Positions 2,995 to 41,511 of a stretch of 41,511 bases of DNA are shown here, one piece after another (position 1 is the first letter of the stretch; every line of letters starts with the position of its first letter). The DNA comes from a virus. A program made the position numbers and the translations under genes. A model generated the notes under the pieces. That model worked only from the letters and a program-made list of their open reading frames with translations, was not told the origin of the DNA and made no database searches. The stretch lies in IMG/VR virus record IMGVR_UViG_3300045988_044506. One strand, 5' to 3'.

Positions 2995-3369
2995 ATGAGC
3001 AATAACGCAAAATGCCGTAGGTGCAAATACGGGTTTGGGCAAGGGTGGTGTGATTACATCGGCGCGACAAACAAGCGCTGCCCATGCCCGCCGGGCAAAG
3101 AATGCACGGTGTACGAACCACTTAGAGGCGCAAAGGAGAAGAACCGGCTACCGGCTCCAATGCCGAAAGCCGACATTGAGCCGGAAAAGAAGCCGTGGAA
3201 TGTGACGGCACAGCTCAACGATCAGCTGACGGCCATGTGGGAACAGGGGCTGACGGACTACCAGATCAGCGCCGAAACCGGCCTGAACCATACGACGATT
3301 GGTTATTGGCGGCGCAAGCGCGGCCTGCCAACCCAGAGGGAACGAAGAAATGCTCAGGGTCACAGTTGA
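2995..3369 (+). CDS. Putative DNA-binding regulator with an N-terminal Cys-rich zinc-finger-like region and a C-terminal HTH
   Basis: Motifs C..C.......C.C..GKEC, and an HTH-like segment LTDYQISAETGLNHTTIGYWRRKRG. Confidence 0.5.
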   Translation: MSNNAKCRRCKYGFGQGWCDYIGATNKRCPCPPGKECTVYEPLRGAKEKNRLPAPMPKADIEPEKKPWNVTAQLNDQLTAMWEQGLTDYQISAETGLNHTTIGYWRRKRGLPTQRERRNAQGHS

Positions 3370-3505
3370 GGTCGATGCACCTACCGGGCAGGCTATCGGA
3401 GTGAAGGAGCAGATAGCAATGGATCTGGAGCGCTGGGGCGATACAGTGGTTGTTTCCGTTGAGGAAATAACCCCGGAGCAGATGAAGTTAGGAGGCATGG
3501 CATGA
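3350..3505 (+). CDS. Small hypothetical protein (51 aa)
   Basis: ATG at 3350 within ORF 3299..3505. It overlaps the upstream stop in an operon arrangement. Confidence 0.4.
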   Translation: MLRVTVEVDAPTGQAIGVKEQIAMDLERWGDTVVVSVEEITPEQMKLGGMA

Positions 3506-3909: not shown

Positions 3910-4480
3910 CAAGTATGAATTTACGAGTGACACGTTAGTCACAGATGACGGTGCTGTACTCCACAGGATAAAAGCGCGGATCAGCTTTGCGGGTGTCCGC
4001 GAGGGAGACCTGGGCGGCTGGGTCGAAAATGAAAAAAATTTAGACGTGTCCGGCAATGCGTGGGTGTACGGCGATGCGCAGGTGTCCGGCAATGCGCTGG
4101 TGTACGGCAATGCGCGGGTGTCCGGCGATGCGCAGGTGTCCGGCGATGCGCTGGTGTCCGGCAATGCGCTGGTGTACGGCAATGCGCAGGTGTCCGGCAA
4201 TGCGCGGGTGTCCGGCAATGCGTGTGTGTCCGGCAATGCGTGGGATGTCTCGCCGCTCCAAATCCAGTCGTCTAAATATTACGTCAACATGGCAAGTGCG
4301 ACTGAGTTGCGCATCGGCTGTCAGGTGCATACGATCGCATGGTGGCTTGAAAATAATGAACGGCACGCCGCCGAGACAGGAGAAACGCCTGAATTTGCGG
4401 CTGAAATGCGCCTATATATCGAGCTGGCCGCAAGGAGATATGCGCCGGAATTGCTGGAACTTGCGGCCGATGAACAGTAA
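3902..4480 (+). CDS. Hexapeptide-repeat protein (left-handed beta-helix-like) with 11 tandem VxGxAx units
   Basis: Repeats VSGNAW VYGDAQ VSGNAL VYGNAR and so on. GGAGG RBS. Confidence 0.7.
   Translation: MNNKYEFTSDTLVTDDGAVLHRIKARISFAGVREGDLGGWVENEKNLDVSGNAWVYGDAQVSGNALVYGNARVSGDAQVSGDALVSGNALVYGNAQVSGNARVSGNACVSGNAWDVSPLQIQSSKYYVNMASATELRIGCQVHTIAWWLENNERHAAETGETPEFAAEMRLYIELAARRYAPELLELAADEQ
4046..4243 (+). repeat. 18-bp tandem DNA repeat (GTGTCCGGCAATGCGCTG-like), 11 units
   Basis: Read directly. Not CRISPR: the units are contiguous, with no spacers. Confidence 0.85.
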
Positions 4481-4492
4481 CAGAGGCATGAC

Positions 4493-4885
4493 ATGAACAA
4501 ACTACAAATTACAATGACCACGGAACAGGCGCGTATCATTAAAGTTGCACTGGAGGAGTACTTCCGCGCCCCGCTTGGACAGTGGCGCGACCTTGCTGAC
4601 CGGCTGGCGTTCCGCGGCTTTGACTGGGACAACCACACAGACGAGGAGCTTGACAAACGGTGTGAGAAGAAAGAATACGCCCTATACGCATTTGATGCGG
4701 CTGGAAACATCGTGATGGACAGAACCGGAACTATCCCGCGCCCAACCGATGAGGCGATTGCGTCAGATATGTGGCGCATTCTGAGGCAGTGGCTGATGGC
4801 AAAAGAGATGCGGCAGGACATCCCGCTGGACACATACCACGAGAGCGACGAACCGCCTATCAAGGTGGAGGAGCTATCAGAATGA
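4493..4885 (+). CDS. Hypothetical protein (130 aa)
   Basis: ATG 8 nt after a GAGG-like RBS. Acidic C-terminus. Confidence 0.55.
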   Translation: MNKLQITMTTEQARIIKVALEEYFRAPLGQWRDLADRLAFRGFDWDNHTDEELDKRCEKKEYALYAFDAAGNIVMDRTGTIPRPTDEAIASDMWRILRQWLMAKEMRQDIPLDTYHESDEPPIKVEELSE

Positions 4886-30768: not shown

Positions 30769-31134
30769 ATGCTGGATGCCAAAGAGATCAACGCCGAAAT
30801 TGCGCGGCTCGAATACGTTGAATCCAGCTACCCTAATTATGCGAAGCTGGCAGACCTATACATCATCCGTGACAGAATGGAGGGCAACGCAGAAAAACCG
30901 TTAGCCTACGAACAGTTATACTCTGCTGCGCCGGCATACGAGTCTGTCCGAGCGCGTCCGAGTGTGTCCAGCCAGTCCGAGATTGATGCCTACGGAGACA
31001 GCGACTTTTTGCGCAGCATATCCGGCAAAGACCCGCAGAAGGTGTGGGACATCGTGGACGAGCTGATGGACACGCTCAAGATTGTCAACCAGCGGACGTA
31101 TGATGGAGTCATGCGCAAGATTGAGCAAATATAA
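30769..31134 (+). CDS. Hypothetical protein with architecture similar to the preceding gene
   Basis: AAGGGGTGAG RBS. Confidence 0.55.
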   Translation: MLDAKEINAEIARLEYVESSYPNYAKLADLYIIRDRMEGNAEKPLAYEQLYSAAPAYESVRARPSVSSQSEIDAYGDSDFLRSISGKDPQKVWDIVDELMDTLKIVNQRTYDGVMRKIEQI

Positions 31135-31408
31135 TGCAATCCCCCAGCCGAAAAAGCTGGGGGATTTGCCGTATCAAAAACGTATCAAAAGGCAAAATTC
31201 ACGCTACTTAATTCACACAGAAACAAGCCTTAATCTTCATCAAAATACACAAAAATGCGTTAGCGCACAATGGATTGCGTGTTTTGTCAGTCTATGATAA
31301 AATAAAACGCCCACAAAACCCGCTGATATTTACCATTGTGAAACTGATGGAATAAGCCAAAATAGTCATAATCTGCAATTTTTAAATGTAAAAAATGAAA
31401 TGCGAGAT
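31135..31408. other. Candidate attP region: AT-rich, adjacent to the integrase 3' end, with direct repeat CGTATCAAAA x2 (31171..31195) as possible arm-type sites
   Basis: Position next to int and the base composition. The core site cannot be defined without a host sequence. Confidence 0.4.
31139..31166 (+). terminator. Hairpin ATCCCCCAGC-cgaaaaa-GCTGGGGGAT with a weak U-tract
   Basis: Read directly. Confidence 0.35.
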
Positions 31409-32479
31409 TTACAGCGTAGCAGAATCGTAGCATCTCTCCAAAATTGAGCACAGATCGTCCCGTTTGGATTTATAAAGATGGGAGTAAACGCGGAGTGTTA
31501 CAGTCACATTTTCGTGGCCTAAACGCTCTGCTATGAGCAGTGGCTGCACCCCCTGGTCTATCAGCATCGACGCGTGAGAATGTCGGAGATCATGCACCCT
31601 GATGATCGGCACACCTGCCTTAACGCAGTTGCGCTTGCAGTGGTTGCGGAGCATAGACGCGCTTGCACCCTCGAATAGCCTACCGCCTGACATTGTGGCG
31701 ATAAGCGGGGCTAATTCCTCCTGCAAAAAGTGTGGGATTGATACAACTCTGACGGAGCTTCCAGTTTTAGGCACTCCGATAATTTCTTCTCCGTTCAGCT
31801 TTATGTAGGTTTTGGTAATGGATATTTTACCGTCGCTCACATCCTCTGGTGCAAGCGCCAGCAACTCGCCCTCACGCATACCCGTCCAAAACAATGTATC
31901 GAAAGCAACCTTCATAAGCTCGTTTTGCTCACAAGCACAGAATTTGGCATACTCCTGCACGGTCAGAAATTTCATTTCTCGCTTTTTTTCATTTCTCTTT
32001 TCGGCGACTGCGTTTGTGCATGGATTTGACGGCAGTCCATATAACCGGACAGCAAAGTTAAAAATGCTCGATAACCTCGATTTCAACATAGCGGTCGTCG
32101 TTTGAGATAGTTTCCCTCCGGTTATGCGCGATTTCCGGTTTTGCAGATCGCTATACCACTTGCGTACAGCCAGTGGCGTGACGTCTTGCACTGCGGTTTT
32201 TCCAAACGCTGGGCGCAAACTCTTTTCTACCGCGAATACGATGGACGAGTATGTCGTAGGCTTTACCCTTGTCTTTGCGTCCTCGAGATACAGATCAAGC
32301 AGCGACGACATTGACATTGATAGACTGCCATTCATCTTTTGCAAAAATTCGCGCTCGTACTGCTGGGCTTCTCGTTTTGTTGGAAAGCCCTCTTTTTTCT
32401 TTTGTTTTCGCGTCCCGTCAAAGGTAGTATATCTACAGGTCACCTTCCAACGCCCGTCCGGCATTTTCGATACGCTCAT
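31409..32479 (-). CDS. int: Tyrosine integrase (phage integrase family with an N-terminal arm-binding domain)
   Basis: Motifs HDLRHSHAS ... LGHENVTVTLRVYSHL (the R-H-R-Y catalytic pattern). N-terminal PDGRWKV...FPTKREA AP2-like domain. Confidence 0.92.
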   Translation of the reverse strand: MSVSKMPDGRWKVTCRYTTFDGTRKQKKKEGFPTKREAQQYEREFLQKMNGSLSMSMSSLLDLYLEDAKTRVKPTTYSSIVFAVEKSLRPAFGKTAVQDVTPLAVRKWYSDLQNRKSRITGGKLSQTTTAMLKSRLSSIFNFAVRLYGLPSNPCTNAVAEKRNEKKREMKFLTVQEYAKFCACEQNELMKVAFDTLFWTGMREGELLALAPEDVSDGKISITKTYIKLNGEEIIGVPKTGSSVRVVSIPHFLQEELAPLIATMSGGRLFEGASASMLRNHCKRNCVKAGVPIIRVHDLRHSHASMLIDQGVQPLLIAERLGHENVTVTLRVYSHLYKSKRDDLCSILERCYDSATL

Positions 32480-33075
32480 AACTTATGCACCACCGATGTT
32501 GTATAACTCGCCTTACCGTCCATGACGGCCGCACGACCTTTGCGCAGGCCGTCTCGGAAAGTCTCCACATCTGGCATGACGCGGTCTGTGCTGACCAGTA
32601 GGCCGTTCGCGCTGGCTGTCTCGTACAGGGTGTCAATCAGGGATGCGACCGCCAGACGCATTGTCATGGGGAGGTGATCTAACATCACAAATTCTTCAGA
32701 CTGAGCGCCGATGTTGGAGCCGTGTTCGCCAAACACTAAAAAATCGAATTTTCGCACGGCGCGGTCCGATGCGACATTGCCTATATAGTGTAGCGCTGCA
32801 CGGCGCAGCTCGTCGATGCTGCTATTCCGCGTGAGCGTGTACACATCCGGGTAAAGATACTCCAGCACGGAGGTCAGGGCGTCAACGCTAAATAGGTCAA
32901 ACCACGAGATAAACTCATCGACGCGAGGAGCTGTCTGCCCGGACTCGTACTTGTCCCACGTCCTCAAATCTACACCGATCATCTCGGCCATTTTATACTT
33001 CGGTAGGCCGGTTCGCGCTCTCAATTTTTGTAGCACAAGAGCACATCCACTTCGTAATTCTTCCCTCGTTCTCAT
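32476..33075 (-). CDS. XRE-family transcriptional regulator co-transcribed with int (ATGA overlap)
   Basis: N-terminal HTH segment LRARTGLPKYKMAEMIGVDLRTWDKYESGQ. AAGGAG RBS. Confidence 0.7.
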   Translation of the reverse strand: MRTREELRSGCALVLQKLRARTGLPKYKMAEMIGVDLRTWDKYESGQTAPRVDEFISWFDLFSVDALTSVLEYLYPDVYTLTRNSSIDELRRAALHYIGNVASDRAVRKFDFLVFGEHGSNIGAQSEEFVMLDHLPMTMRLAVASLIDTLYETASANGLLVSTDRVMPDVETFRDGLRKGRAAVMDGKASYTTSVVHKL

Positions 33076-33137
33076 AACTTCACTCCTTTTATGTAAAAAA
33101 TTGCGGTAAATTTTGCTTATGTCCCCTCGTTATATCC

Positions 33138-33166
33138 ATTAAAAGGATAAATGATTTCTTGTACAA
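33138..33166 (-). promoter_or_regulatory. Candidate promoter TTGTAC-17-TTTAAT for the regulator-int operon
   Basis: Read directly. The -10 is weak. Confidence 0.3.
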
Positions 33167-33190
33167 TAACGCTCAAAGGGGGAGTAGAGG

Positions 33191-33364
33191 ATGAATTATC
33201 GTATAAAAATAGCCGAACATCCTGAATATGCAGACGCCCTTGTCGCAATGTTTGGAACGGACGATATAGGTCGCATATCTGAGCAGGATGCTCGGCTGTT
33301 CTGGCACTACGTTGTGCCAGAGTTAAATGATGGTCAGTTTATGGGTAATGATCCGGTCACTTGA
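33191..33364 (+). CDS. Small hypothetical protein (57 aa)
   Basis: Strong RBS AAAGGGGGAG. Below the ORF-track size cutoff. Confidence 0.4.
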   Translation: MNYRIKIAEHPEYADALVAMFGTDDIGRISEQDARLFWHYVVPELNDGQFMGNDPVT

Positions 33365-33605
33365 TATTCCAAGAGTAACCGCAATTCTGGCAAAGGCAGA
33401 CTTTCTGATTCTCGAATTTTGTCTTTTCGTTTCCGGTTGACTTTTTCCAGAATAGATTGCTGATACCAAGTGTGCTCAATCCGACAACAGTCCGTGCCGC
33501 ATTGTTGACGTGGCCGCCAAACCCGATACCCTTTTTCGCGGTCTTACTAGCCGTCTGTTCCATCGAGATAGTTACATTTTCGCTTTTGCACTTAGGACAA
33601 ACCAT
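33357..33605 (-). CDS. Double zinc-ribbon protein with a central hydrophobic segment (82 aa)
   Basis: Motifs CPKC...CQNC. Convergent with, and overlapping, the previous ORF. Low GC. Confidence 0.5.
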   Translation of the reverse strand: MVCPKCKSENVTISMEQTASKTAKKGIGFGGHVNNAARTVVGLSTLGISNLFWKKSTGNEKTKFENQKVCLCQNCGYSWNIK

Positions 33606-33688
33606 TTTAATCACCCACAATTTTATAAATTTGCATAGCCAGCGTCGAACGAATGTGCTAGACTGTGACCATACTCCTATACACGGAA

Positions 33689-33717
33689 TTGATTAGTTAA
33701 AACATCTGTACTATAAT
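33689..33717 (+). promoter_or_regulatory. Near-consensus sigma-A promoter TTGATT-17-TATAAT
   Basis: Read directly. Drives the three-gene small-protein operon. Confidence 0.55.
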
Positions 33718-33731
33718 GAGAGGAGAAAACA

Positions 33732-33851
33732 ATGAGAGAGACCACTGAAAGCCGATTACTTACCCCCGACGAATTTAAAACGCTGGTTTGCAGCCTGAGT
33801 GCTGACCAGATCGATAGGATCAACGATATGCTAGGAGGAATTGCAAAATGA
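33732..33851 (+). CDS. Small soluble protein (39 aa)
   Basis: RBS GAGAGGAG. Its stop overlaps the next start (ATGA). Confidence 0.45.
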   Translation: MRETTESRLLTPDEFKTLVCSLSADQIDRINDMLGGIAK

Positions 33852-33991
33852 GAATTGCTAGTGTTGCCTGTACCATTAGTATGTGTGTTGTCTGCGTGTT
33901 GCAGGCAATCCGGCTGTATCAGTCGTGGAAAAAATACGGTGAATCCGATGAGTGGAAGAAGATCGAATCATCGCTTGAACTGGAGGAATAA
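33848..33991 (+). CDS. Small single-TM protein (47 aa)
   Basis: RBS TAGGAGG. Hydrophobic segment IASVACTISMCVVCVLQAI. Confidence 0.45.
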   Translation: MRIASVACTISMCVVCVLQAIRLYQSWKKYGESDEWKKIESSLELEE

Positions 33992-33993
33992 AA

Positions 33994-34305
33994 ATGAGTC
34001 TGATTAACATAGTGCTATGCCTTATCAGCTTTGGAGCGATCTTCTCCGGGCTTTGCATTCAGATTTTCATGCGGCTTCATAATCGAAAAATTGCCGAATC
34101 TTATGGACAGGTATACCAGTTGGATGACGGTACAACGGTCATTTTCGACAAACATTGCAGCATCAGGCTAGAGAAGGGCGGCAAAGAATCCATTAGTGTC
34201 CATGACTCCCGAAAGAGTGAGGACGGCGTGGGTACGTTCTTCTGCGGGTGCCTGACCGGCTTTGGATTTGCCATGCTTTCGGTCGTCTGCGTGTTGCTCC
34301 GATAA
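33994..34305 (+). CDS. Two-TM membrane protein (103 aa)
   Basis: RBS TGGAGGAA. TM segments at the N- and C-termini. Confidence 0.55.
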   Translation: MSLINIVLCLISFGAIFSGLCIQIFMRLHNRKIAESYGQVYQLDDGTTVIFDKHCSIRLEKGGKESISVHDSRKSEDGVGTFFCGCLTGFGFAMLSVVCVLLR

Positions 34306-34308
34306 AAG

Positions 34309-34608
34309 TCATCGGAAGAAAAGCCCCAGAACGGACGCCAGAGCCGCAACAGCGGCTATTCCAGCGGTGATCCTAAAGCGCCGCGTTTGAATACGCTTTT
34401 CTTCAAGCTCCTTCAAACGATCTTCTCCATATCCGGTAATAAGCGCTCGCTCCTGACCCTTTAGCGGGCCTTTCTGAGCGATGCCGAGGGAATGGATAAG
34501 GTTCTCGTTCAAGAGGATGGATGCATTCTTACGGTTCTTTTCGGTGATCTGCAAACCATTTTCTGACTGGCTTTTTAGCAGCAGTCGATATTCCGTTGAC
34601 TGTCTCAT
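34309..34608 (-). CDS. C-tail-anchored membrane protein co-transcribed with the repressor. Candidate superinfection-exclusion protein.
   Basis: C-terminal TM segment ITAGIAAVAALASVLGLFF. Its start overlaps the repressor stop. Confidence 0.5.
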   Translation of the reverse strand: MRQSTEYRLLLKSQSENGLQITEKNRKNASILLNENLIHSLGIAQKGPLKGQERALITGYGEDRLKELEEKRIQTRRFRITAGIAAVAALASVLGLFFR

Positions 34609-35132
34609 TTCTCACCCACAACTGCATCAACAACAGCCAGAATGCGCCGTCTATCTTCCTCAGACGCATTCTCATACCGCTCGACCAAGCGCTTTGCGCC
34701 ATCACTCAAACCGTCGCCCTTCGGGGCGGCGGTTTTTTTGTCGTTTCCGCTCAGTCCCATGAGGTAGTCGGGCGATACCCCAAAGTAATCTGAAATTTTT
34801 CTGATTGTTGTATCTCTCGGGGTTCTCCCCGCAGCCCAGCCAGTAACTGCCGCGCTTGTGCATCCTATTGCGAGAGCAACGGAATTGGGCGTGTCCCCGT
34901 TTTGAGAGCAAAGGTAACACAGATTTCGATAAAAAATACTTGGCTCAAAATCGCTCAGGTCATCCGGGTCAACATTGAAATAGTTCGCTATTTTGTAAAT
35001 TGTTTTGCTTCTTGGATTTGCCCCGTTCTTCCACTGAGTAACGGAAGCTGGAGAAATGCCAAGCTCAGTTACAACCGCGGTAGGGGATTTGCTATTTTTG
35101 ATACACAAGGCCGTAAATCTATCCCAAAACAT
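34605..35132 (-). CDS. cI-like lysogeny repressor with two tandem XRE-type HTH domains
   Basis: Two HTH_XRE-like segments. Divergent from the early promoter region. Confidence 0.75.
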   Translation of the reverse strand: MFWDRFTALCIKNSKSPTAVVTELGISPASVTQWKNGANPRSKTIYKIANYFNVDPDDLSDFEPSIFYRNLCYLCSQNGDTPNSVALAIGCTSAAVTGWAAGRTPRDTTIRKISDYFGVSPDYLMGLSGNDKKTAAPKGDGLSDGAKRLVERYENASEEDRRRILAVVDAVVGEK

Positions 35133-35182
35133 GGCAAAGTGATCTCCTTAAAAATAAAACTAAAAAAATATTACAAAATGTA

Positions 35183-35211
35183 TTTACAAACTAATATAAA
35201 TATATTATAAT
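35183..35211 (+). promoter_or_regulatory. Early promoter TTTACA-17-TATAAT, copy 1 of a duplicated 34-bp promoter/operator element (35180..35213)
   Basis: Identical apart from one mismatch to 36733..36766. Confidence 0.6.
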
Positions 35212-35295
35212 ACACCCAAGAAGCAAAAAACTAAAGTTACTATACTGAATATAGCACAACAAAAACCAAAAGGCAACATATAGGAGGAAATAAAA

Positions 35296-35442
35296 ATGAG
35301 ATGGGTTATCGAGTACACACCGGAAGGCAGCGATATGTGGCAGCACGCCTACTGCGATACCGAACAGGAAGCATATGAAGGAGCCGCGTATCTGGAATCT
35401 GTCGGAGCCGACATAACAGCGATATTTGAGCTGGATTATTAA
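35296..35442 (+). CDS. Small acidic hypothetical protein (48 aa), first early gene
   Basis: RBS TAGGAGG. Confidence 0.45.
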   Translation: MRWVIEYTPEGSDMWQHAYCDTEQEAYEGAAYLESVGADITAIFELDY

Positions 35443-35522
35443 GCCGAAACGCCCGCTGGGCGTCCGCAGGAACCGCCCCACCTGCGCTGAAGATGGCAGG
35501 GCATATTTAAGGAGGAATTATT

Positions 35523-36443
35523 ATGGCAGCTTTGGTTGAGACGATGATGTATGTGCGTGAGACCCCGTGGCATGGGCTGGGGACGAAGGTAGACGAAGCC
35601 CCGACCAGCGCGGATGCGCTCCGGCTGGCGCAGCTGGATTGGACGGTTGACCAGCACCCGGTATTCGCCGATGGCAATGAAGTTGCCGGTTACAAGGCAA
35701 ACGTCAGGAGTTCGGATGGCAGATGCCTCGGCATCGTAAGCAATCGCTACAAGGTGGTGCAGAACGTGGATGCGTTCAGCTTCACCGACAGTTTGATTGG
35801 TGGCGATGTGCGCTACGAAACTGCCGGAAGTCTGAACGGAGGCCGTAAGATTTGGCTGCTGGCGAGACTGCCGGAAACTGAAATCTGCGGAGACAAGACC
35901 GACCCATACATGGTGTTCAGCAACACGCATGATGGCACAGGTGCCGTGCGTGTTTGCATGACGCCTGTTCGGGTGGTCTGTAACAACACGCTGAATCTGG
36001 CGCTCGGTTCCGCGCAGCGGGCATGGAGCGTTCGGCACGTTGGAGATATTTCTGCCAAGCTGAACGAGGCGCGGCACTGCTTGGATATGGCCAATCAGTA
36101 TATGGGCGAACTTGGCATTGAAGCTGATCGCTTGGCGAACAAAACCGTTACCGACGAGCGGCTGAAGCAGATCCTTGACGAGCTGTTCCCGGCAAACGAT
36201 GACATGAGGGACATTCAGAAGCGGCACGTTCAGCGACTCAAGGATGAATACATGGTGTGCTATTTCGCCCCGGATATTGCAAAATTCCGGGGTACGGCAT
36301 GGGGCGCAGTCAATGCGATGAGCGATATGGTCACCCACAACAAGCCCCATCGCAACACCGCCAATTATCGTGAAAACAACTGGGGCAGGGTGATGAGCGG
36401 TCACTGGCTTATGGATGCCATGACGGCGGCAGTACGGAAGTAA
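35523..36443 (+). CDS. DUF932 / phage-plasmid-like protein (TIGR03299-like)
   Basis: N-terminal PWHGLG motif and a length of 306 aa. AAGGAGG RBS. The antisense ORF 35439..36515 is judged to be a shadow. Confidence 0.65.
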   Translation: MAALVETMMYVRETPWHGLGTKVDEAPTSADALRLAQLDWTVDQHPVFADGNEVAGYKANVRSSDGRCLGIVSNRYKVVQNVDAFSFTDSLIGGDVRYETAGSLNGGRKIWLLARLPETEICGDKTDPYMVFSNTHDGTGAVRVCMTPVRVVCNNTLNLALGSAQRAWSVRHVGDISAKLNEARHCLDMANQYMGELGIEADRLANKTVTDERLKQILDELFPANDDMRDIQKRHVQRLKDEYMVCYFAPDIAKFRGTAWGAVNAMSDMVTHNKPHRNTANYRENNWGRVMSGHWLMDAMTAAVRK

Positions 36444-36471
36444 CGCCGCAACGATCGGCAACAAAGAAAGC

Positions 36472-36491
36472 GGCCTCCCGTGAGGGAGGCC
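36472..36491 (+). other. Stable hairpin GGCCTCCC-gtga-GGGAGGCC without a U-tract
   Basis: Read directly. Confidence 0.4.
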
Positions 36492-36513
36492 GTCAAGCAA
36501 GAAAGGAGCGATC

Positions 36514-36711
36514 ATGTTTACATCTATCTATCACATTGTTTTCCAATGGTTTAGTCGTCACCCATTGGAGGCCGTCGAGCTGCCGAATGGCGGCTTTGCC
36601 CAGTCCGTCAGCGGCTATGTTCGCCTGTACGACAAGAACGGAGAGTTTGTCCGTGAAGTACAGCTGAGCGAGGATGCGGTGGTCAATTTGATGCTGGAGA
36701 ACGGGATTTAA
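36514..36711 (+). CDS. Hypothetical small protein (65 aa)
   Basis: RBS AAAGGAG. Confidence 0.5.
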   Translation: MFTSIYHIVFQWFSRHPLEAVELPNGGFAQSVSGYVRLYDKNGEFVREVQLSEDAVVNLMLENGI

Positions 36712-36735
36712 AGTGAAAGAATATTGGAAAGCGTA

Positions 36736-36764
36736 TTTACAAACTAATATAAATATAGTATAAT
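36736..36764 (+). promoter_or_regulatory. Early promoter TTTACA-17-TATAAT, copy 2 of the duplicated element (36733..36766)
   Basis: See copy 1. Confidence 0.6.
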
Positions 36765-36815
36765 ACCTAGTGTAAGGAGGTACATCAAGTGGTAGGAAGA
36801 AACGAGGATAACGAA

Positions 36816-36923
36816 ATGAGTACGATGCGAGAGACCGTAAAGCTCATCATTGAGATCGTTCGCAAGTGCCAGACGGTCGATGAGGTGCTCGAAGCTCTGA
36901 ACCGCTGGCTGAGAGATAACTAA
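36816..36923 (+). CDS. Tiny ORF (35 aa; 44 aa from the alternative GTG at 36789)
   Basis: RBS TAAGGAGG, 12 nt upstream of the GTG. Confidence 0.3.
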   Translation: MSTMRETVKLIIEIVRKCQTVDEVLEALNRWLRDN

Positions 36924-36928
36924 AAAAC

Positions 36929-37026
36929 GACTGCTCACCGCCGCAAACGATGAGCAGTCAGAGATCCCGCAAACCCTAGCAAAATCCACGAGATGGGACG
37001 ACGATACTCCTACCCCGTCCCATCTC
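36929..37026 (+). other. Two consecutive long stem-loops (9-bp stem GACTGCTCA / TGAGCAGTC; 11-bp stem GAGATGGGACG / CGTCCCATCTC), both without U-tracts
   Basis: Read directly. Confidence 0.5.
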
Positions 37027-37068
37027 AAGTATACCACAGAAGGTAGGAGAACGCAAGAAAGAGGTGAA

Positions 37069-37263
37069 ATGATGACCAAAATCGAGTTTGAGCGGCGAAA
37101 GGCAAATCTGACTCAGAAGCAGCTCGCCGATCTGATTGGAGTAACGTCTGGCGCAATCAGTTTTTGGGAGATACATAAAACTATCCCCCGTGTAAACCAG
37201 ATTGAAAAGATGGCCGCCGTGCTGAATGTCCCCTACGACCGTCTGATCGGCGATGTGGAGTGA
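37069..37263 (+). CDS. Cro-like XRE-family HTH regulator
   Basis: HTH segment LTQKQLADLIGVTSGAISFWE. GAGGTGA RBS. Confidence 0.7.
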   Translation: MMTKIEFERRKANLTQKQLADLIGVTSGAISFWEIHKTIPRVNQIEKMAAVLNVPYDRLIGDVE

Positions 37264-37273
37264 GGTGAAATAA

Positions 37274-37459
37274 ATGACCAGACAGCTTATCACCGCCCGC
37301 GAAGCGGCAGCTCTGCTGGGCATCGGCGAACAGTCAGCGCGGGAAGTCCTGCGCAAAATCAACACCGAAATGAAGAAGGAGGGGCTGTTCACACTTGATA
37401 ACCCCGTTAAGGTTCCCCGCCGGAGATTGCTCCAGCGGTTCGGGCTGGAAAAGGAGTGA
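37274..37459 (+). CDS. Excisionase-like small DNA-binding protein
   Basis: HTH segment ITAREAAALLGIGEQSAREVLRK, basic C-terminus, 61 aa. Confidence 0.45.
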   Translation: MTRQLITAREAAALLGIGEQSAREVLRKINTEMKKEGLFTLDNPVKVPRRRLLQRFGLEKE

Positions 37460-37463
37460 GGGT

Positions 37464-37688
37464 ATGGACAACCTGACCACTCAGCGCAAGCAAATCTTGG
37501 AGCACCTGAAAAAGCACGGCAAAATCACCAGCATGGAAGCCTTTGAGCTGTTCGGGTGCACAAGATTGAGCGGTCGTATTTACGACCTGAAGGCAGAGGG
37601 CTACACTATCCTGACCGAGCGCACGTCAGGCAAGAGCCGCACCGGGCATAAAACGGAGTATGCAACATATTACTTGGAGGAGTATTAA
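37464..37688 (+). CDS. Winged-helix DNA-binding protein (74 aa)
   Basis: AAGGAGTGAGG RBS. Motif KITSMEAFELFGCTRLSGRIYDLK. Confidence 0.5.
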   Translation: MDNLTTQRKQILEHLKKHGKITSMEAFELFGCTRLSGRIYDLKAEGYTILTERTSGKSRTGHKTEYATYYLEEY

Positions 37689-37704
37689 GACGAGGTGAAA
37701 ACAA

Positions 37705-37974
37705 ATGAACACTACGACGTTAGCACAGTACAAGATCAACCAAGAAGATGGCGATTTTCTCGTCATTGTTTCTGACGGAGACCTTACTCACGTCAACCTG
37801 AATGGCAGAGAAATTAGCGGCAGCCGCATTTCGTTTGTTGCTAGTTCCTACGATGTTCAGCTGAGCGTTGAAGATGAGTATGAAACCACCAGTAGCGTAG
37901 TTTATGACGTCTACGACCATCTTGTGAAGGAGGATAAAACAAATGAGGTATCAGGTAACGATCGACCACTGTGA
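37705..37974 (+). CDS. Hypothetical protein (89 aa)
   Basis: GAGGTGA RBS. Confidence 0.45.
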   Translation: MNTTTLAQYKINQEDGDFLVIVSDGDLTHVNLNGREISGSRISFVASSYDVQLSVEDEYETTSSVVYDVYDHLVKEDKTNEVSGNDRPL

Positions 37975-38164
37975 CAACCACACCGGCCTGCGGAGCGTGA
38001 CACAGGGCATGGTGGAGGGCGACAGCTTCCACGAAGTGGCGGAGAAGGCTATGAGCGGTTACGCGATGGATGGCACTACCGTCTATGCGATGAATTTCGA
38101 TATTGTGGTGACGCCCAAGCCGGAGACCAGTTCCCTGTTCGCGCCGAGACCTTGCGCTGTGTGA
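37943..38164 (+). CDS. Hypothetical protein (73 aa)
   Basis: Strong RBS GAAGGAGG. Confidence 0.5.
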   Translation: MRYQVTIDHCDNHTGLRSVTQGMVEGDSFHEVAEKAMSGYAMDGTTVYAMNFDIVVTPKPETSSLFAPRPCAV

Positions 38165-38231
38165 TGCTCACCGCATCTGGGGGTCATCTATCCCCCATTT
38201 GGTATCTAGAGACAAGAACAAAGGAGCAGAA

Positions 38232-38444
38232 ATGAAAATCGTAACGTTAACGCTGGCAGAAGCGGTTTCCCGGCTTCATCTGGCGGGGCTGAAAATCTCC
38301 AAAGAGACGCAGGGCGAAGGGCTGAAAAGCGGCGTTTATTCGTTCGGCGTCGGCTTCACCGGCCAGCGTGGCGGAACCGTGTATCAGATTTTCAGCCGCC
38401 AGCTGGATGAGTGGATCGCGGAACGATCGGAAGAGGAGGGATAA
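38232..38444 (+). CDS. Hypothetical protein (70 aa)
   Basis: RBS AAAGGAG. Confidence 0.5.
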   Translation: MKIVTLTLAEAVSRLHLAGLKISKETQGEGLKSGVYSFGVGFTGQRGGTVYQIFSRQLDEWIAERSEEEG

Positions 38445-38445
38445 C

Positions 38446-38646
38446 ATGGCAAGCACTACGGTTTATCTGCTGGCACTGGGCGCGACCGGCTTTGCACTGG
38501 TCGATGTGGTCGGCGCAATGGCGGTGAGAGCGTACAGACGGCGCAGAGCGCGTCTTGCGCGGGAGGCGCGGAAACGTGCCGAGGCTGAGAAAATCGCCCG
38601 TCACCAGCTGTTCTGGCGGAATATGCGGGAGACGGCCCAGCTGTAA
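38446..38646 (+). CDS. Small membrane protein (TM helix plus Arg-rich tail)
   Basis: RBS GAGGAGGG. Confidence 0.45.
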   Translation: MASTTVYLLALGATGFALVDVVGAMAVRAYRRRRARLAREARKRAEAEKIARHQLFWRNMRETAQL

Positions 38647-38740
38647 AAAATAAGTGCCGCCCACAGTGCGCGAACACCATGAGCGGCAAGAGGTATATAC
38701 AGGATACCTCTAGTATAGCGCAAGCAAGGAGAGAATGCAA

Positions 38741-39010
38741 GTGGAACAATATTATTATTGCCCGAACTGCTTCGACGTGTTTGATGAACCGGGGTTTACC
38801 CGTGAGTGGGTAGCTGACGAGTTTGGGGAACACTGCGAACTGTGGAGCTGCTGCCCCCGGTGCGAGTCCACGGACTTTGAACAGGCGGAACAGTGTGAGG
38901 ATTGCAGCGGATGGTTTGCACCTAACGAAATCAACGCCGACGGTCTGTGCGGGAACTGCACATATAAGAGCCTGACGGCTCTATTTGAAAAGAAGGTGAA
39001 AGCATGCTGA
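38741..39010 (+). CDS. Cys-rich zinc-ribbon protein with four CxxC pairs (GTG start; an alternative ATG lies at 38735)
   Basis: RBS AAGGAG. Confidence 0.5.
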   Translation: MEQYYYCPNCFDVFDEPGFTREWVADEFGEHCELWSCCPRCESTDFEQAEQCEDCSGWFAPNEINADGLCGNCTYKSLTALFEKKVKAC

Positions 39011-39189
39011 CCTGTGATGGCTATAAGATATTTCGGGGCACGATGACCGTTACCCCGCTGAACGGCCACGAGCCGTTTGACAAGCGCGGAACATGGCTGT
39101 ATAAGCCGCAGTCCGACTGCTGGTACTGCGACGGCGCCAACAGCTATGGAGCGCTGATCTGCAAGGTAAAGGAGGATGAGGCGGAGTGA
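39004..39189 (+). CDS. Small hypothetical protein (61 aa)
   Basis: ORF overlapping its neighbours in an operon arrangement. Confidence 0.4.
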   Translation: MLTCDGYKIFRGTMTVTPLNGHEPFDKRGTWLYKPQSDCWYCDGANSYGALICKVKEDEAE

Positions 39190-39959
39190 GCAATCATAAT
39201 TTCGGCGAACACGCAGAAGAATACAGCGCCAAGCAAAAGAAGAAGATCCCGGTATGGCGAAGCCCTAAATACATCGAAGCGCGGGACAAGGCCATTGAGA
39301 TGATCGAAAGCGGTAAATATGGCCTGACAGACGGCGATTTCTGGATTCTGATGAACGAGACCAAAAGCGGAAAAATGGGCTATACCGGCCTTATCATTTC
39401 CCATAACGGCTGTCTCAAGATCAACGATAGTCTCCCGGAGGAGAAGCGGTTCCGGCCACAGTGCGTAGAGCTTGACAAGGATGGCTGGGGCGAGTCCCTT
39501 GTTTACACCTACAACTGCAACGAGCAGGGAGTCTATGAAGTGGGTGAGTTCAGCCGGGTCAACGGTAAAAATGCTTATCCGTATGCGATGGCCCTGAAAC
39601 GGATGTTTGATCGCGTCGTCCTGAAAACATCCAAGCTGGCCTACTCTGGCGTGTATTCCGAATCCGAATCTGATGATTTTAGCGATACGCGCGAACCATC
39701 CTCAACGAGTGCGGAAGGGAAGCCCGCCGCAGAACCGAAAGAGCCTGATCCTAATGTGGCTCAAAAGCCCCCTGCTACCTGCGAAGAATGCGGCGAAACG
39801 ATTACCGCCACCCGGAACAATGACTATGATACCATCATCCGAAATGGGATGCACTTCAACAAGCATTTGTGCTACTCCTGCCTGATGAAGGCTTTCAAGG
39901 CCGAGAAGGCCGCAGAGGCCAAGAAGGCTCTCGCGGCTAATGCGGAGGCAAGCGCATGA
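39186..39959 (+). CDS. Hypothetical 257-aa protein with a C-terminal zinc ribbon. Possible single-strand annealing / recombination protein.
   Basis: Position upstream of the NinB-like and SSB genes. No family motif recognised. Confidence 0.5.
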   Translation: MSNHNFGEHAEEYSAKQKKKIPVWRSPKYIEARDKAIEMIESGKYGLTDGDFWILMNETKSGKMGYTGLIISHNGCLKINDSLPEEKRFRPQCVELDKDGWGESLVYTYNCNEQGVYEVGEFSRVNGKNAYPYAMALKRMFDRVVLKTSKLAYSGVYSESESDDFSDTREPSSTSAEGKPAAEPKEPDPNVAQKPPATCEECGETITATRNNDYDTIIRNGMHFNKHLCYSCLMKAFKAEKAAEAKKALAANAEASA

Positions 39960-40543
39960 CTCTGAACTGCAAAGGCTCCGACATCAAGTATTTCGGCGGC
40001 TATGTCTGCGTCCCTTGCCAGTCCCCCGGCGATACGCTGGGGGAGCTGGTGGCGGACAAGGAGTACACGGTAACGGTCAAGCGCAAGACAAAAAAGCGCA
40101 GTCTGGATGCTAACGCCTATTACTGGGAGCTATGCGGTAAGCTGGCACAGCACATGGGTGTCACGTCCGGTGAGGTCTACCGGCGGCACATCGTAGATAT
40201 GAGCAACTACGAGACGTACTGCATGATGAGTGCCGCCGTTGAAGCGTTCAGTCGGCTGTGGTGCTCCGATCACTACGGCAGAAGTATAGACACTAGGGCG
40301 AGCAAGATTCCCGGCTGTACGACGGTTTTGGCGTACTACGGCAGCTCCGATTTTGACACGGCGCAGATGTCCCGGCTGATTGACAACTGCGTGCAGGACT
40401 GCAAGGCACTTGGCATTGAGACCCGCCCAGAAGAGGAGGTGCGAAGCCTATTAGCGCAATGGAAAGAGGAGAAAAACGCTGCTGGCTCTGCGGACGAACA
40501 GACCAGCGGCTCGACCGGCACCACATATTCGGAGGTTCACTGA
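39956..40543 (+). CDS. NinB/Orf-family recombination mediator
   Basis: Motif RSLDANAYYWELCGKLA resembles lambda NinB RSLDQNRKLWACLGDVS. Confidence 0.55.
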   Translation: MTLNCKGSDIKYFGGYVCVPCQSPGDTLGELVADKEYTVTVKRKTKKRSLDANAYYWELCGKLAQHMGVTSGEVYRRHIVDMSNYETYCMMSAAVEAFSRLWCSDHYGRSIDTRASKIPGCTTVLAYYGSSDFDTAQMSRLIDNCVQDCKALGIETRPEEEVRSLLAQWKEEKNAAGSADEQTSGSTGTTYSEVH

Positions 40544-40737
40544 GAAGCAAATCCGAGCATTACGGCCTTGTGATTTACCTTTGCCATGACACCTGCCATA
40601 TCTTCGGCAGACATGCAGTGCATCGAGACCCGGAAACTATGCTGATCTGCAAGCGGTACGGGCAGGTAAAAGCGATGGCCGAAAATGGCTGGTCGATTGA
40701 GGACTTCATCGCGGAGTTCGGCCACAATTATTTGTAG
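40459..40737 (+). CDS. Small HNH-type endonuclease domain protein, overlapping the preceding gene by 85 nt
   Basis: Motifs CWLCG ... DRHHI ... LCHDTCH. Confidence 0.5.
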   Translation: MERGEKRCWLCGRTDQRLDRHHIFGGSLRSKSEHYGLVIYLCHDTCHIFGRHAVHRDPETMLICKRYGQVKAMAENGWSIEDFIAEFGHNYL

Positions 40738-40748
40738 GAGGTATATAG

Positions 40749-41162
40749 ATGCTTAATCACATCGTACTTATGGGGCGGCTCACGAAAGACCCCGAGCTGC
40801 GCCACACAAACACAGGGACAGCGGTTGCGTCCTTCTCCCTCGCAGTCGAGAGGGATTTCAAGGATAAGTCCACCGGAGAGCGCCAGACGGATTTTATCGA
40901 CGTAGTGGCATGGCGGCAGACCGGAGAGTTCGTCTCCCGGTACTTCACCAAAGGCCGTCAGGCCGTCGTGGAAGGTCGTTTGCAGATGCGCGACTGGACG
41001 GATAAGCACGGCAACAAACGCCGCTCTGCGGAGGTTATTGCGGACAGCGTGTACTTTGCTGACAGCAACAAACGTGACGATAGCGCACCGGCAACGCAGC
41101 CCGCACATGACGATTTCGCTGAGCTTGATGACCTCGACGATGATGGCGAATTGCCCTTCTGA
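40749..41162 (+). CDS. ssb: Single-stranded DNA-binding protein
   Basis: OB-fold motifs (VLMGRLTKDPELR ... GRLQMRDWTDK) and an acidic C-terminal tail DDDGELPF. Confidence 0.92.
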   Translation: MLNHIVLMGRLTKDPELRHTNTGTAVASFSLAVERDFKDKSTGERQTDFIDVVAWRQTGEFVSRYFTKGRQAVVEGRLQMRDWTDKHGNKRRSAEVIADSVYFADSNKRDDSAPATQPAHDDFAELDDLDDDGELPF

Positions 41163-41173
41163 GGGGTGAGCAA

Positions 41174-41511
41174 ATGCGGGACTCGCTGAGGATTTGGCAC
41201 TCATACATTGAGGCCGCGAGAATGCTTTCGGATGCAGACCGCCTTGCCTATTACGATGCGCTATTTGATTACGGATTTGATGGGATTGATCCGGAATTAA
41301 CCGGAATTCCAGCGGCAATGTTCCTGCTTACCAAACCGAATTTGGACAAATCAATCAGCAAATCGGAAGCAGGAGCCGTCGGTGGTGCAAGCAAACCGGA
41401 AGCAAAACGCAAGCAAACGTTAAGCAAAACGGAAGCAAACGGAAACGAATGCGCAAGCGATAAGAGAATAGAGAATAGAGAAGAGAGAATAGAGAGTATA
41501 CCCCCCATACC
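41174..41511 (+). CDS. Phage replication protein (replisome organizer / DnaD-like), N-terminal part. The ORF continues across the circular junction into 1..516.
   Basis: ATG at 41174 follows the SSB stop with a GGGGTGAG RBS. The frame is open to the window end and is in frame with position 1. Confidence 0.65.
   Translation, partial: MRDSLRIWHSYIEAARMLSDADRLAYYDALFDYGFDGIDPELTGIPAAMFLLTKPNLDKSISKSEAGAVGGASKPEAKRKQTLSKTEANGNECASDKRIENREERIESIPPI

Follow-up and report, generated by a model that had tools for sequence, protein, structure and literature searches.

We analyzed a stretch of viral DNA of 41,511 nt (IMG/VR virus record IMGVR_UViG_3300045988_044506), which is called the window below. 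Its immunity region contains two nearly identical copies of a 34-nt promoter element, named PA and PB here, on either side of a block of genes that includes the gene of a DUF932 protein. It is likely, judging from sequence comparison, that both copies are early lytic promoters of the sigma-A type, each probably with a repressor site, and that one repressor silences the two early transcription units behind them. That a repressor controls two early units of one strand was one of two interpretations offered by the initial annotation. This interpretation is favored by the finding that the promoter pair exists in eight relatives as well as in the window and appears to change with the DNA-binding domain of the repressor. 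Because the pair co-varies with this domain and the two-promoter frame is independent of the cargo, two co-repressed early units would explain the data better than a recent cassette insertion.

The element GTATTTACAAACTAATATAAATATATTATAATAC is located at 35180–35213 on the + strand (PA), and its second copy at 36733–36766 on the same strand (PB). The copies agree at 33 of the 34 positions, with a single mismatch (T35205 versus G36758). When up to three mismatches were allowed, these were the only two copies in the window, and none was found in 100 dinucleotide-preserving shuffles. A weaker similarity continues upstream, so that 57 nt (35157–35213 versus 36710–36766) share 86% identity. Both copies read TTTACA-17-TATAAT, with the −35 hexamer at 35183–35188 and the −10 hexamer at 35206–35211 in PA, and at 36736–36741 and 36759–36764 in PB. 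Both thus have the form of sigma-70/sigma-A promoters (hexamers near TTGACA/TATAAT and a spacer of 16–18 nt), and in a promoter scan of 31000–41511 they were the best two and the sole 11/12 matches of the sigma-70 type. The recurrence with one mismatch and the rightward promoter in each copy, both described in the initial annotation, were thus confirmed.

Relatives of the window were sought through proteins, by homologs of the repressor and of DUF932, by contig look-ups and by one IMG/VR scan. They come from gut metagenomes of humans and animals, as contigs of 38–44 kb with the same synteny, and together with the window they form an undescribed family of temperate gut phages. The pair was found in every relative that covers both promoter positions. 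With these eight relatives (L018, L020, L025, L026, L030, L057, L062 and L064) and the window, nine genomes and 18 promoters were compared. Their common layout is a leftward helix-turn-helix (HTH) repressor gene, the rightward PA, a cargo block, and the rightward PB, which lies 1484–1982 bp downstream of PA and just before a 44-aa open reading frame (ORF) or the gene of a Cro-like protein. All of the 18 promoters have TTTAC(A/G), a 17-nt spacer and a −10 hexamer of TATAAT, TATACT, TATTAT or TATATT. The spacer sequences vary across immunity types, whereas the hexamers and the 17-nt spacing are constant.

The sequence in and around the hexamers is alike within a genome and unlike between genomes that have different repressor DNA-binding domains. 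We assessed this by permutation over the six immunity types: the true same-genome pairing of PA with PB had the highest summed non-hexamer identity among the permutations (1/720). The test was run on 52 non-hexamer positions and on the 17-nt spacer alone, and the true pairing ranked first in both.

Each immunity type has its own shared site. In the window it is TAATATA-AA-TATATTA, which lies in the spacer, and in the L026 type (L026, L057 and L062) it is ACTACAT-AAA-ATGTAGT, also in the spacer. All six promoters of the latter type carry ACTACATAAAATGTAG, and its shared palindrome in a custom palindrome scan was TACTACATAAAATGTAGTA. The site of L020 is ATTTATAGTATACTATAAAT, with perfect 10-nt arms over the −10 hexamer, that of L018 is TTTACATTWAGTAAA over the −35 hexamer, and that of L025 and L064 is ACTAAAGA...TTTAGT. 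The 14-mer common to both promoters of L030 is inverted and shifted between them: over the −35 hexamer of PA it is TTACAATATGTTAG, and abutting the −10 hexamer of PB it is TTAACATATTGTAA. A copied promoter does not explain an inverted and shifted site; a protein-binding site would explain it.

PB itself lies within a variable island of about 60–70 bp that is type-specific, whereas the sequence downstream of its −10 hexamer is about 95% conserved between immunity types in the alignment. Thus, the small island around PB remains matched to the repressor gene across a distance of 1.5 kb.

The repressor candidate of the window is encoded at 34605..35132 on the − strand. PA begins 48 nt from its start codon, and the two are adjacent and divergent. 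The protein has 175 aa, with a tandem HTH_3 domain (two stretches in Pfam, E = 9e-17) and a tail of about 45 aa, and it matches PHROG families of transcriptional regulators and repressors. The repressors of the family are modular; that is, an N-terminal region with one HTH or two in tandem, which varies, is joined to a C-terminal tail of about 45 aa. The tail of the window (KKTAAPKGDGLSDGAKRLVERYENASEEDRRRILAVVDAVVGEK, encoded at 34605–34745) is common to relatives with unrelated DNA-binding domains, and it is nearly identical in the window, L018, L020, L025, L057, L058, L062 and L064 (KKTAAPxGDGLSDGAKRLVERYENASEEDRRRILAVVDAVVGEK). It had no Pfam match, and it may be a candidate for oligomerization, for induction or for the target of an anti-repressor. 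A peptidase S24 domain was not reported by Pfam in the 175-aa protein, where only HTH families were found, and induction by LexA-like autocleavage is therefore probably not the route.

L026, L057 and L062 have DNA-binding domains that are at least 97% identical, whereas their tails and cargo are different; L026, for instance, has the same DNA-binding domain as L057 and a different tail. As described above, their promoters belong to one type. Thus, what the shared site appears to track is the DNA-binding domain of the repressor, and neither the cargo nor the C-terminal tail. Among the repressors with tandem HTH domains, the two presumed recognition helices, which we assigned ourselves with no mapping by a tool, are invariant in the window, P0002 and P0003. 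L002, whose repressor is 61% identical to that of the window and has these helices unchanged, gives further support: over the 31 nt available, its PA is identical to the PB variant of the window.

The element could also be the target of another regulator in place of the 175-aa repressor, namely of the 64-aa Cro-like protein or of a 199-aa HTH protein. For the Cro-like protein, the presumed recognition helix (likewise assigned by us with no tool mapping) differs between immunity types, and in classical switches Cro and the repressor share operators. However, the Cro-like proteins of the window and L020 are about 87% identical while their operators are unrelated. The 199-aa protein was considered as specificity determinant and rejected, since it is 97–98% identical in the window, L026, L057 and L062 and yet the operators of the window differ. 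The cleanest one-to-one match to the operator type is given by the DNA-binding domain of the repressor, and a regulator other than the repressor is very unlikely to be the sole reader of the element. Of the possible outcomes, binding by both Cro and the repressor would be the likeliest.

Several points weigh against control of both promoters by the repressor. Cro might recognize the element too, either alongside the repressor or in its place. The operator of the window is ambiguous between two overlapping AT-rich palindromes at the promoter, and AT-rich DNA readily yields palindromes. One is the site given above (35192–35207 at PA; its PB counterpart at 36745–36760 has one arm mismatch), and the other is TATTTACA-N6-TATAAATA at 35181–35202. 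They were found by the custom palindrome scan, which was used after an inverted-repeat search at the promoters gave no match at the minimum length of that search; the same scan gave clear dyads in L020 and L026. The mismatch between PA and PB sits in an arm of one of the candidate palindromes. Each promoter has one candidate site, unlike the tripartite operators of lambda, and a search of the 41.5-kb window for the 16-mer with up to three mismatches found no operator copies beyond the two. L001, whose repressor is 99% identical to that of the window, has two substitutions within the element. Finally, the near-identity of the window pair could partly stem from gene conversion and not from selection.

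An alternative is that the two promoters are unregulated. The copies would then be strong early promoters of a phage-specific family. What they share outside the hexamers would contribute to promoter strength, as UP element, spacer or discriminator, or result from gene conversion. The hexamers are near consensus and the upstream tracts are A/T-rich, and unrelated Firmicutes genomes often contain the generic GTATTTACAAA...TATAAT. In a distant low-GC phage, L052, each early gene is preceded by a copy of another promoter, and the vicinity has no repressor gene, a pattern that also argues against repressor control in the window. In L052, AGTTGAT...TATAAT followed by a TGTAAATAAA-like sequence is found at 3025–3075, 3434–3490 and 4470–4520, and these copies precede three consecutive early genes, that of DUF932 included. 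However, elements of promoter strength should not switch wholesale with the DNA-binding domain of the repressor, which is what the shared sequences do here, with hexamers and spacing unchanged. Among the shared sites, several are long perfect palindromes. Their position and orientation also vary, from the −35 hexamer in L018 and the −10 hexamer in L020 to the spacer in the window and L026, with inversion in L030. We regard an unregulated promoter family as quite unlikely.

The other interpretation in the initial annotation was that the DUF932 cassette had been inserted by recombination between promoter copies. More generally, the second copy could be a by-product of cassette insertion or duplication, or the own promoter of a moron-like block, and the similarity would be historical with no common regulation. 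This would be in accord with the near-identity of the two window copies and with the mosaic character of the region. In L001 (1–260, reverse strand), the recombination breakpoint relative to the window lies 27 nt into the 48-aa ORF, the first ORF of the cargo, and leaves a 9-codon stub that is followed by a different gene (MATINENAARIAKEL...). When this downstream gene was followed up, only an unrelated 56-aa protein in another phage-like contig was found. That PA of L002 carries the PB variant of the window, as noted above, also suggests an exchange between the two copies. The L002 Logan contig breaks off precisely where the first 31-mer of the element ends, and this would fit branching of a de Bruijn graph at a repeat if a k-mer of 31 is assumed.

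The cargo also varies. The window and L025 have the 48-aa ORF, a hammerhead ribozyme, the DUF932 gene and a 65-aa ORF. An additional 63-aa ORF is found in L018–L023 and an additional 135-aa ORF in L057 and L062, and in L026 and L030 a 64-aa ORF replaces the 48-aa ORF. L064 has a matched PA and PB 1578 bp apart and is without the DUF932 gene, the 48-aa ORF or a detectable hammerhead. Its slot holds instead a 63-aa ORF, a short ORF, an 89-aa ORF, a 61-aa protein, a 131-aa ORF on the opposite strand and a homolog of the 65-aa ORF. The 61-aa protein (1600–1785, − strand) has a hydrophobic N-terminal half and a strongly basic tail, and it resembles a small membrane toxin or exclusion protein.

The genome L064 bears directly on the insertion. 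A relative that lacks DUF932 had been proposed as a place to see whether a single promoter copy remains, and L064 keeps both, with different genes between them, a finding that the initial annotation had named as a refutation. The claim refuted by it is the link of the promoter pair to DUF932, while the regulatory interpretation is untouched by this result. Recent insertion of the cassette is not upheld either, because the frame exists, with different cargos, in all six immunity types for which both promoters were seen and persists in L064; it must predate any single insertion. Further, the similarity within pairs is centered on type-specific palindromes and tracks the DNA-binding domain of the repressor, and the site of L030 is inverted and shifted. 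Among the relatives examined, none that is intact has one promoter and an empty slot; L058 has a single PA, but it is a truncated prophage. Insertion or duplication as the origin of the second copy is therefore unlikely. PA and PB enclose an exchangeable cargo slot, in which DUF932 is one possible occupant, and the two-promoter frame belongs to the immunity and early region and not to the DUF932 cassette.

Control of both units by the repressor thus seems the best account, and we infer from it repressor binding, repression, read-through, interference and any looping between the sites. In the lysogenic state, each promoter would be bound by the 175-aa tandem-HTH repressor, at a site inside its −35/−10 spacer or beside it. 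The repressor would thereby shut the PA unit (48-aa ORF, hammerhead, DUF932 and 65-aa ORF) and the PB unit (44-aa ORF, Cro-like protein, and genes of replication and recombination). Once repression is lifted, both promoters would fire. PA would give immediate expression of the cargo, with the hammerhead separating the DUF932 message from the upstream ORF, and PB would independently secure the expression of Cro and the replication genes. Because no terminator-like site is predicted on the + strand within 35214–36732, transcripts from PA probably run on through PB.

Repression of PA may also matter for the repressor gene itself. A leftward promoter, TTGCCT-17-TATATT with an upstream TG (TGc), was predicted by the promoter scan at 35276..35248 on the − strand. 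In L001, L020, L025 and L026, its hexamers and TG are kept while the spacer is variable, and L003 has TTTACT-17-TATACT in its place; the hexamers in the relatives were read by eye from the sequences and the alignment. The interval from PA to the start codon of the repressor offers no comparable back-to-back promoter, and the site at 35276..35248 is therefore probably the promoter of the repressor, face to face with PA. The start sites, estimated from the −10 positions, would be about 23 bp apart. Repressing PA would then lessen convergent interference on the repressor's own promoter. L018 and L030, also read by eye, seem to have back-to-back promoters instead. An inverted repeat, CTATA-N5-TATAG, overlaps the −10 hexamer of the leftward promoter; it is kept in L020, partly kept in L025 and different in L026. 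L020 and L025 have Cro-like proteins similar to that of the window, and the repeat might be a Cro site.

The first gene of the PA unit is the 48-aa ORF (35296..35442, + strand), which had no family match in Pfam or PHROG searches and has homologs in relatives that are 71–96% identical. It is followed by a type II hammerhead ribozyme (35442..35505, + strand; Rfam RF02276), which begins at the stop codon of this ORF and ends 17 nt before the DUF932 gene. The window copy scores 31 bits (E = 6e-4), which is below the gathering score of 37, whereas its orthologs in L026, L030, L057 and L062 score 42–49 bits and exceed it. In the alignment to the model, the core is complete, with CUGANGA, GAAA, the GUC (GUH) site and stems I–III, and cleavage is predicted after C35464 (GUC). 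An alignment of eight genomes, with five distinct sequences, showed a double compensatory change in each of stems I, II and III and in the pseudoknot between loop I and the 3' tail. Within it, 98.9% of the cells were paired, compared with 25–39% in slid controls. A 65-bp DNA match to Faecalibacterium phage FP_Mushu (query 35440–35503) overlaps the hammerhead and stops 3 nt before its 3' end.

Type II hammerheads with this pseudoknot are known from prophage operons (Perreault et al. 2011, PMC3088659). The hammerhead of the window is like them in its core (CUGANGA/GAAA/GUC), its three stems, the pseudoknot of loop I with the 3' tail and its intergenic site in a polycistronic unit of a phage. It differs in that the window copy, as given above, is under the gathering score of Rfam.

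The remaining genes of the region agree mostly with the initial annotation, which had missed the hammerhead and the leftward promoter that faces PA. Around PA, the tandem-HTH repressor, the 48-aa ORF, the DUF932 gene and the 65-aa ORF are as stated there. The DUF932 protein of 306 aa (35523..36443, + strand) matches PF06067 with E = 1e-58 (199 bits versus a cut-off of 23) and phrog_1221 with E = 4e-85. A literature search at the level of titles and abstracts found no reported function of DUF932; the term occurs in 10 papers, in none of them in the title or abstract. The 65-aa ORF (36514..36711, + strand) is the last of the cargo block, and its homolog in L064 is 77% identical. Behind PB, the tiny ORF and the Cro gene were recovered as a 44-aa ORF (36789..36923, + strand) and a single-HTH protein of 64 aa (37069..37263, + strand; Pfam HTH_3, E = 4e-12), while the label 'Xis' could not be retained, because the 61-aa ORF concerned (37274–37459) had no Pfam match. 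The 44-aa ORF is 95–98% identical in relatives with different operators. A winged-helix protein comes after the 61-aa ORF among the early genes of the + strand, with an SSB further on. On the other side, the tyrosine integrase is encoded at 31409–32479 on the − strand, and the gene of the 199-aa HTH protein overlaps it. The order of integrase, repressor, Cro-like protein and SSB is kept in the relatives.

Some RNA structures were also noticed in the early operon. Strong hairpins at 36471–36492 and 36928–36960 lie within the + strand operon and have T-runs on the − strand only, and they look like terminators of leftward transcription. The first of them overlaps a sub-threshold Rfam match to the Bacillus small RNA ncr982 (36455–36524, − strand, 37 bits versus a threshold of 50), which is antisense to the ribosome-binding site and the start of the 65-aa ORF. 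A perfect 11-bp stem, GAGATGGGACG...CGTCCCATCTC, is found at 36990–37026, in the gap that separates the 44-aa ORF from the Cro-like gene. It is kept in L057 although the adjoining hairpin differs there.

Outside the family, little similar to the window was found. The exact 34-nt element was absent from IMG/VR viral contigs and JGI metagenome contigs. A degenerate pattern of the element gave 14 loci in viral and genome contigs, which were all rejected as unrelated Firmicutes promoters with no proteins in common with the window. The repressor protein as query against viral contigs gave no match. INPHARED gave short matches only, with no close relative of the structural half of the window and no close relative among deposited phages.

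Most of the more distant DUF932 loci (56–72% identity) are without the PA/PB architecture. L032–L043 are large IMG/VR contigs whose DUF932 homologs are 65–72% identical, and on both sides of DUF932 they have GGTTAGCAAA, then about 12–16 nt, and then TTCTGTAA or TTCCGTA (for example, L039 at 3416 and 4446). This motif may be a promoter for a sigma factor encoded by the element. In L059–L061, an orphan 111-aa homolog of the repressor and a homolog of the 48-aa ORF lie amid chromosomal genes (TetR, metallophosphatase, LPG synthase). The orphan protein is present in 47 blocks of the collection, and the locus may be a domesticated prophage remnant.

The results have several implications. For an uncharacterized family of human-gut temperate phages, they provide concrete predictions of the operators in six immunity types, which can be tested. 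They display a modular repressor, in which a variable DNA-binding domain is joined to a conserved C-terminal tail. They also place a widespread gene with no assigned function, that of DUF932, in an early unit that would be gated by a repressor, behind a predicted self-cleaving ribozyme, and this suggests when and how its function could be sought. A more far-reaching idea is that the bracket of PA and PB is a portable immediate-early cargo slot. The matched operator-promoters would serve both as regulators and as recombination linkers by which heteroimmune phages swap accessory modules (possibly for counter-defense, DUF932 being an example), the hammerhead would release the DUF932 mRNA, and a 1.5-kb repressor loop might bridge the operators. 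We consider this idea speculative and rather doubtful.

In lambda, CI silences PL and PR through the tripartite operators OL and OR, which overlap the promoters. The window is similar in that one repressor would act on two early promoters, 1.5–2.4 kb apart, through operators that overlap them. Operators and the DNA-binding specificity of the repressor are swapped together among mosaic relatives, as in the heteroimmunity of lambdoid systems, and long-range cooperation between the two sites is conceivable. However, the promoters of the window are on the same strand, the repressor gene is outside the pair and exchangeable cargo is located between the promoters. There is one candidate site per promoter and not three, and the repressor has no S24 domain and carries two HTH domains in one chain. 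Thus, the system of the window is outside the lambda CI family. Coliphages 186 and P2 offer another comparison, because the predicted leftward promoter (35276..35248) is convergent on PA as in these phages, and repression may relieve interference. There is no sequence relationship to them, the leftward promoter comes from a consensus match and conservation, and L018 and L030 apparently have back-to-back promoters.

The reuse of a putative repressor-binding sequence on the early strand resembles the multi-operator switches of the Gram-positive phages TP901-1 (CI with OR/OL/OD) and phi105, and also P1 C1 and the stoperators of mycobacteriophage L5 gp71. P1 C1 and L5 gp71 have 10–30 dispersed operator sites, whereas the window has two sites in 41.5 kb, and both are full copies of a promoter and not intragenic roadblocks. 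With only two sites, it is not a dispersed-operator system. The cargo slot is like a phage moron in being a short accessory block of variable content with its own promoter between conserved core genes. As a rule, classical morons are active in the prophage and have a terminator at their end. The promoter of the slot, in contrast, matches the early operator type, so that the slot is presumably silent in the lysogen, and no + strand terminator is predicted. The repetition of early promoters is in itself common, and the arrangement is a variation on the well-known wiring of phage switches without a new principle. It is found here in an undescribed phage family, in which the clean co-variation of operator and DNA-binding domain over mosaic members, the exchangeable slot and the ribozyme ahead of DUF932 stand out.

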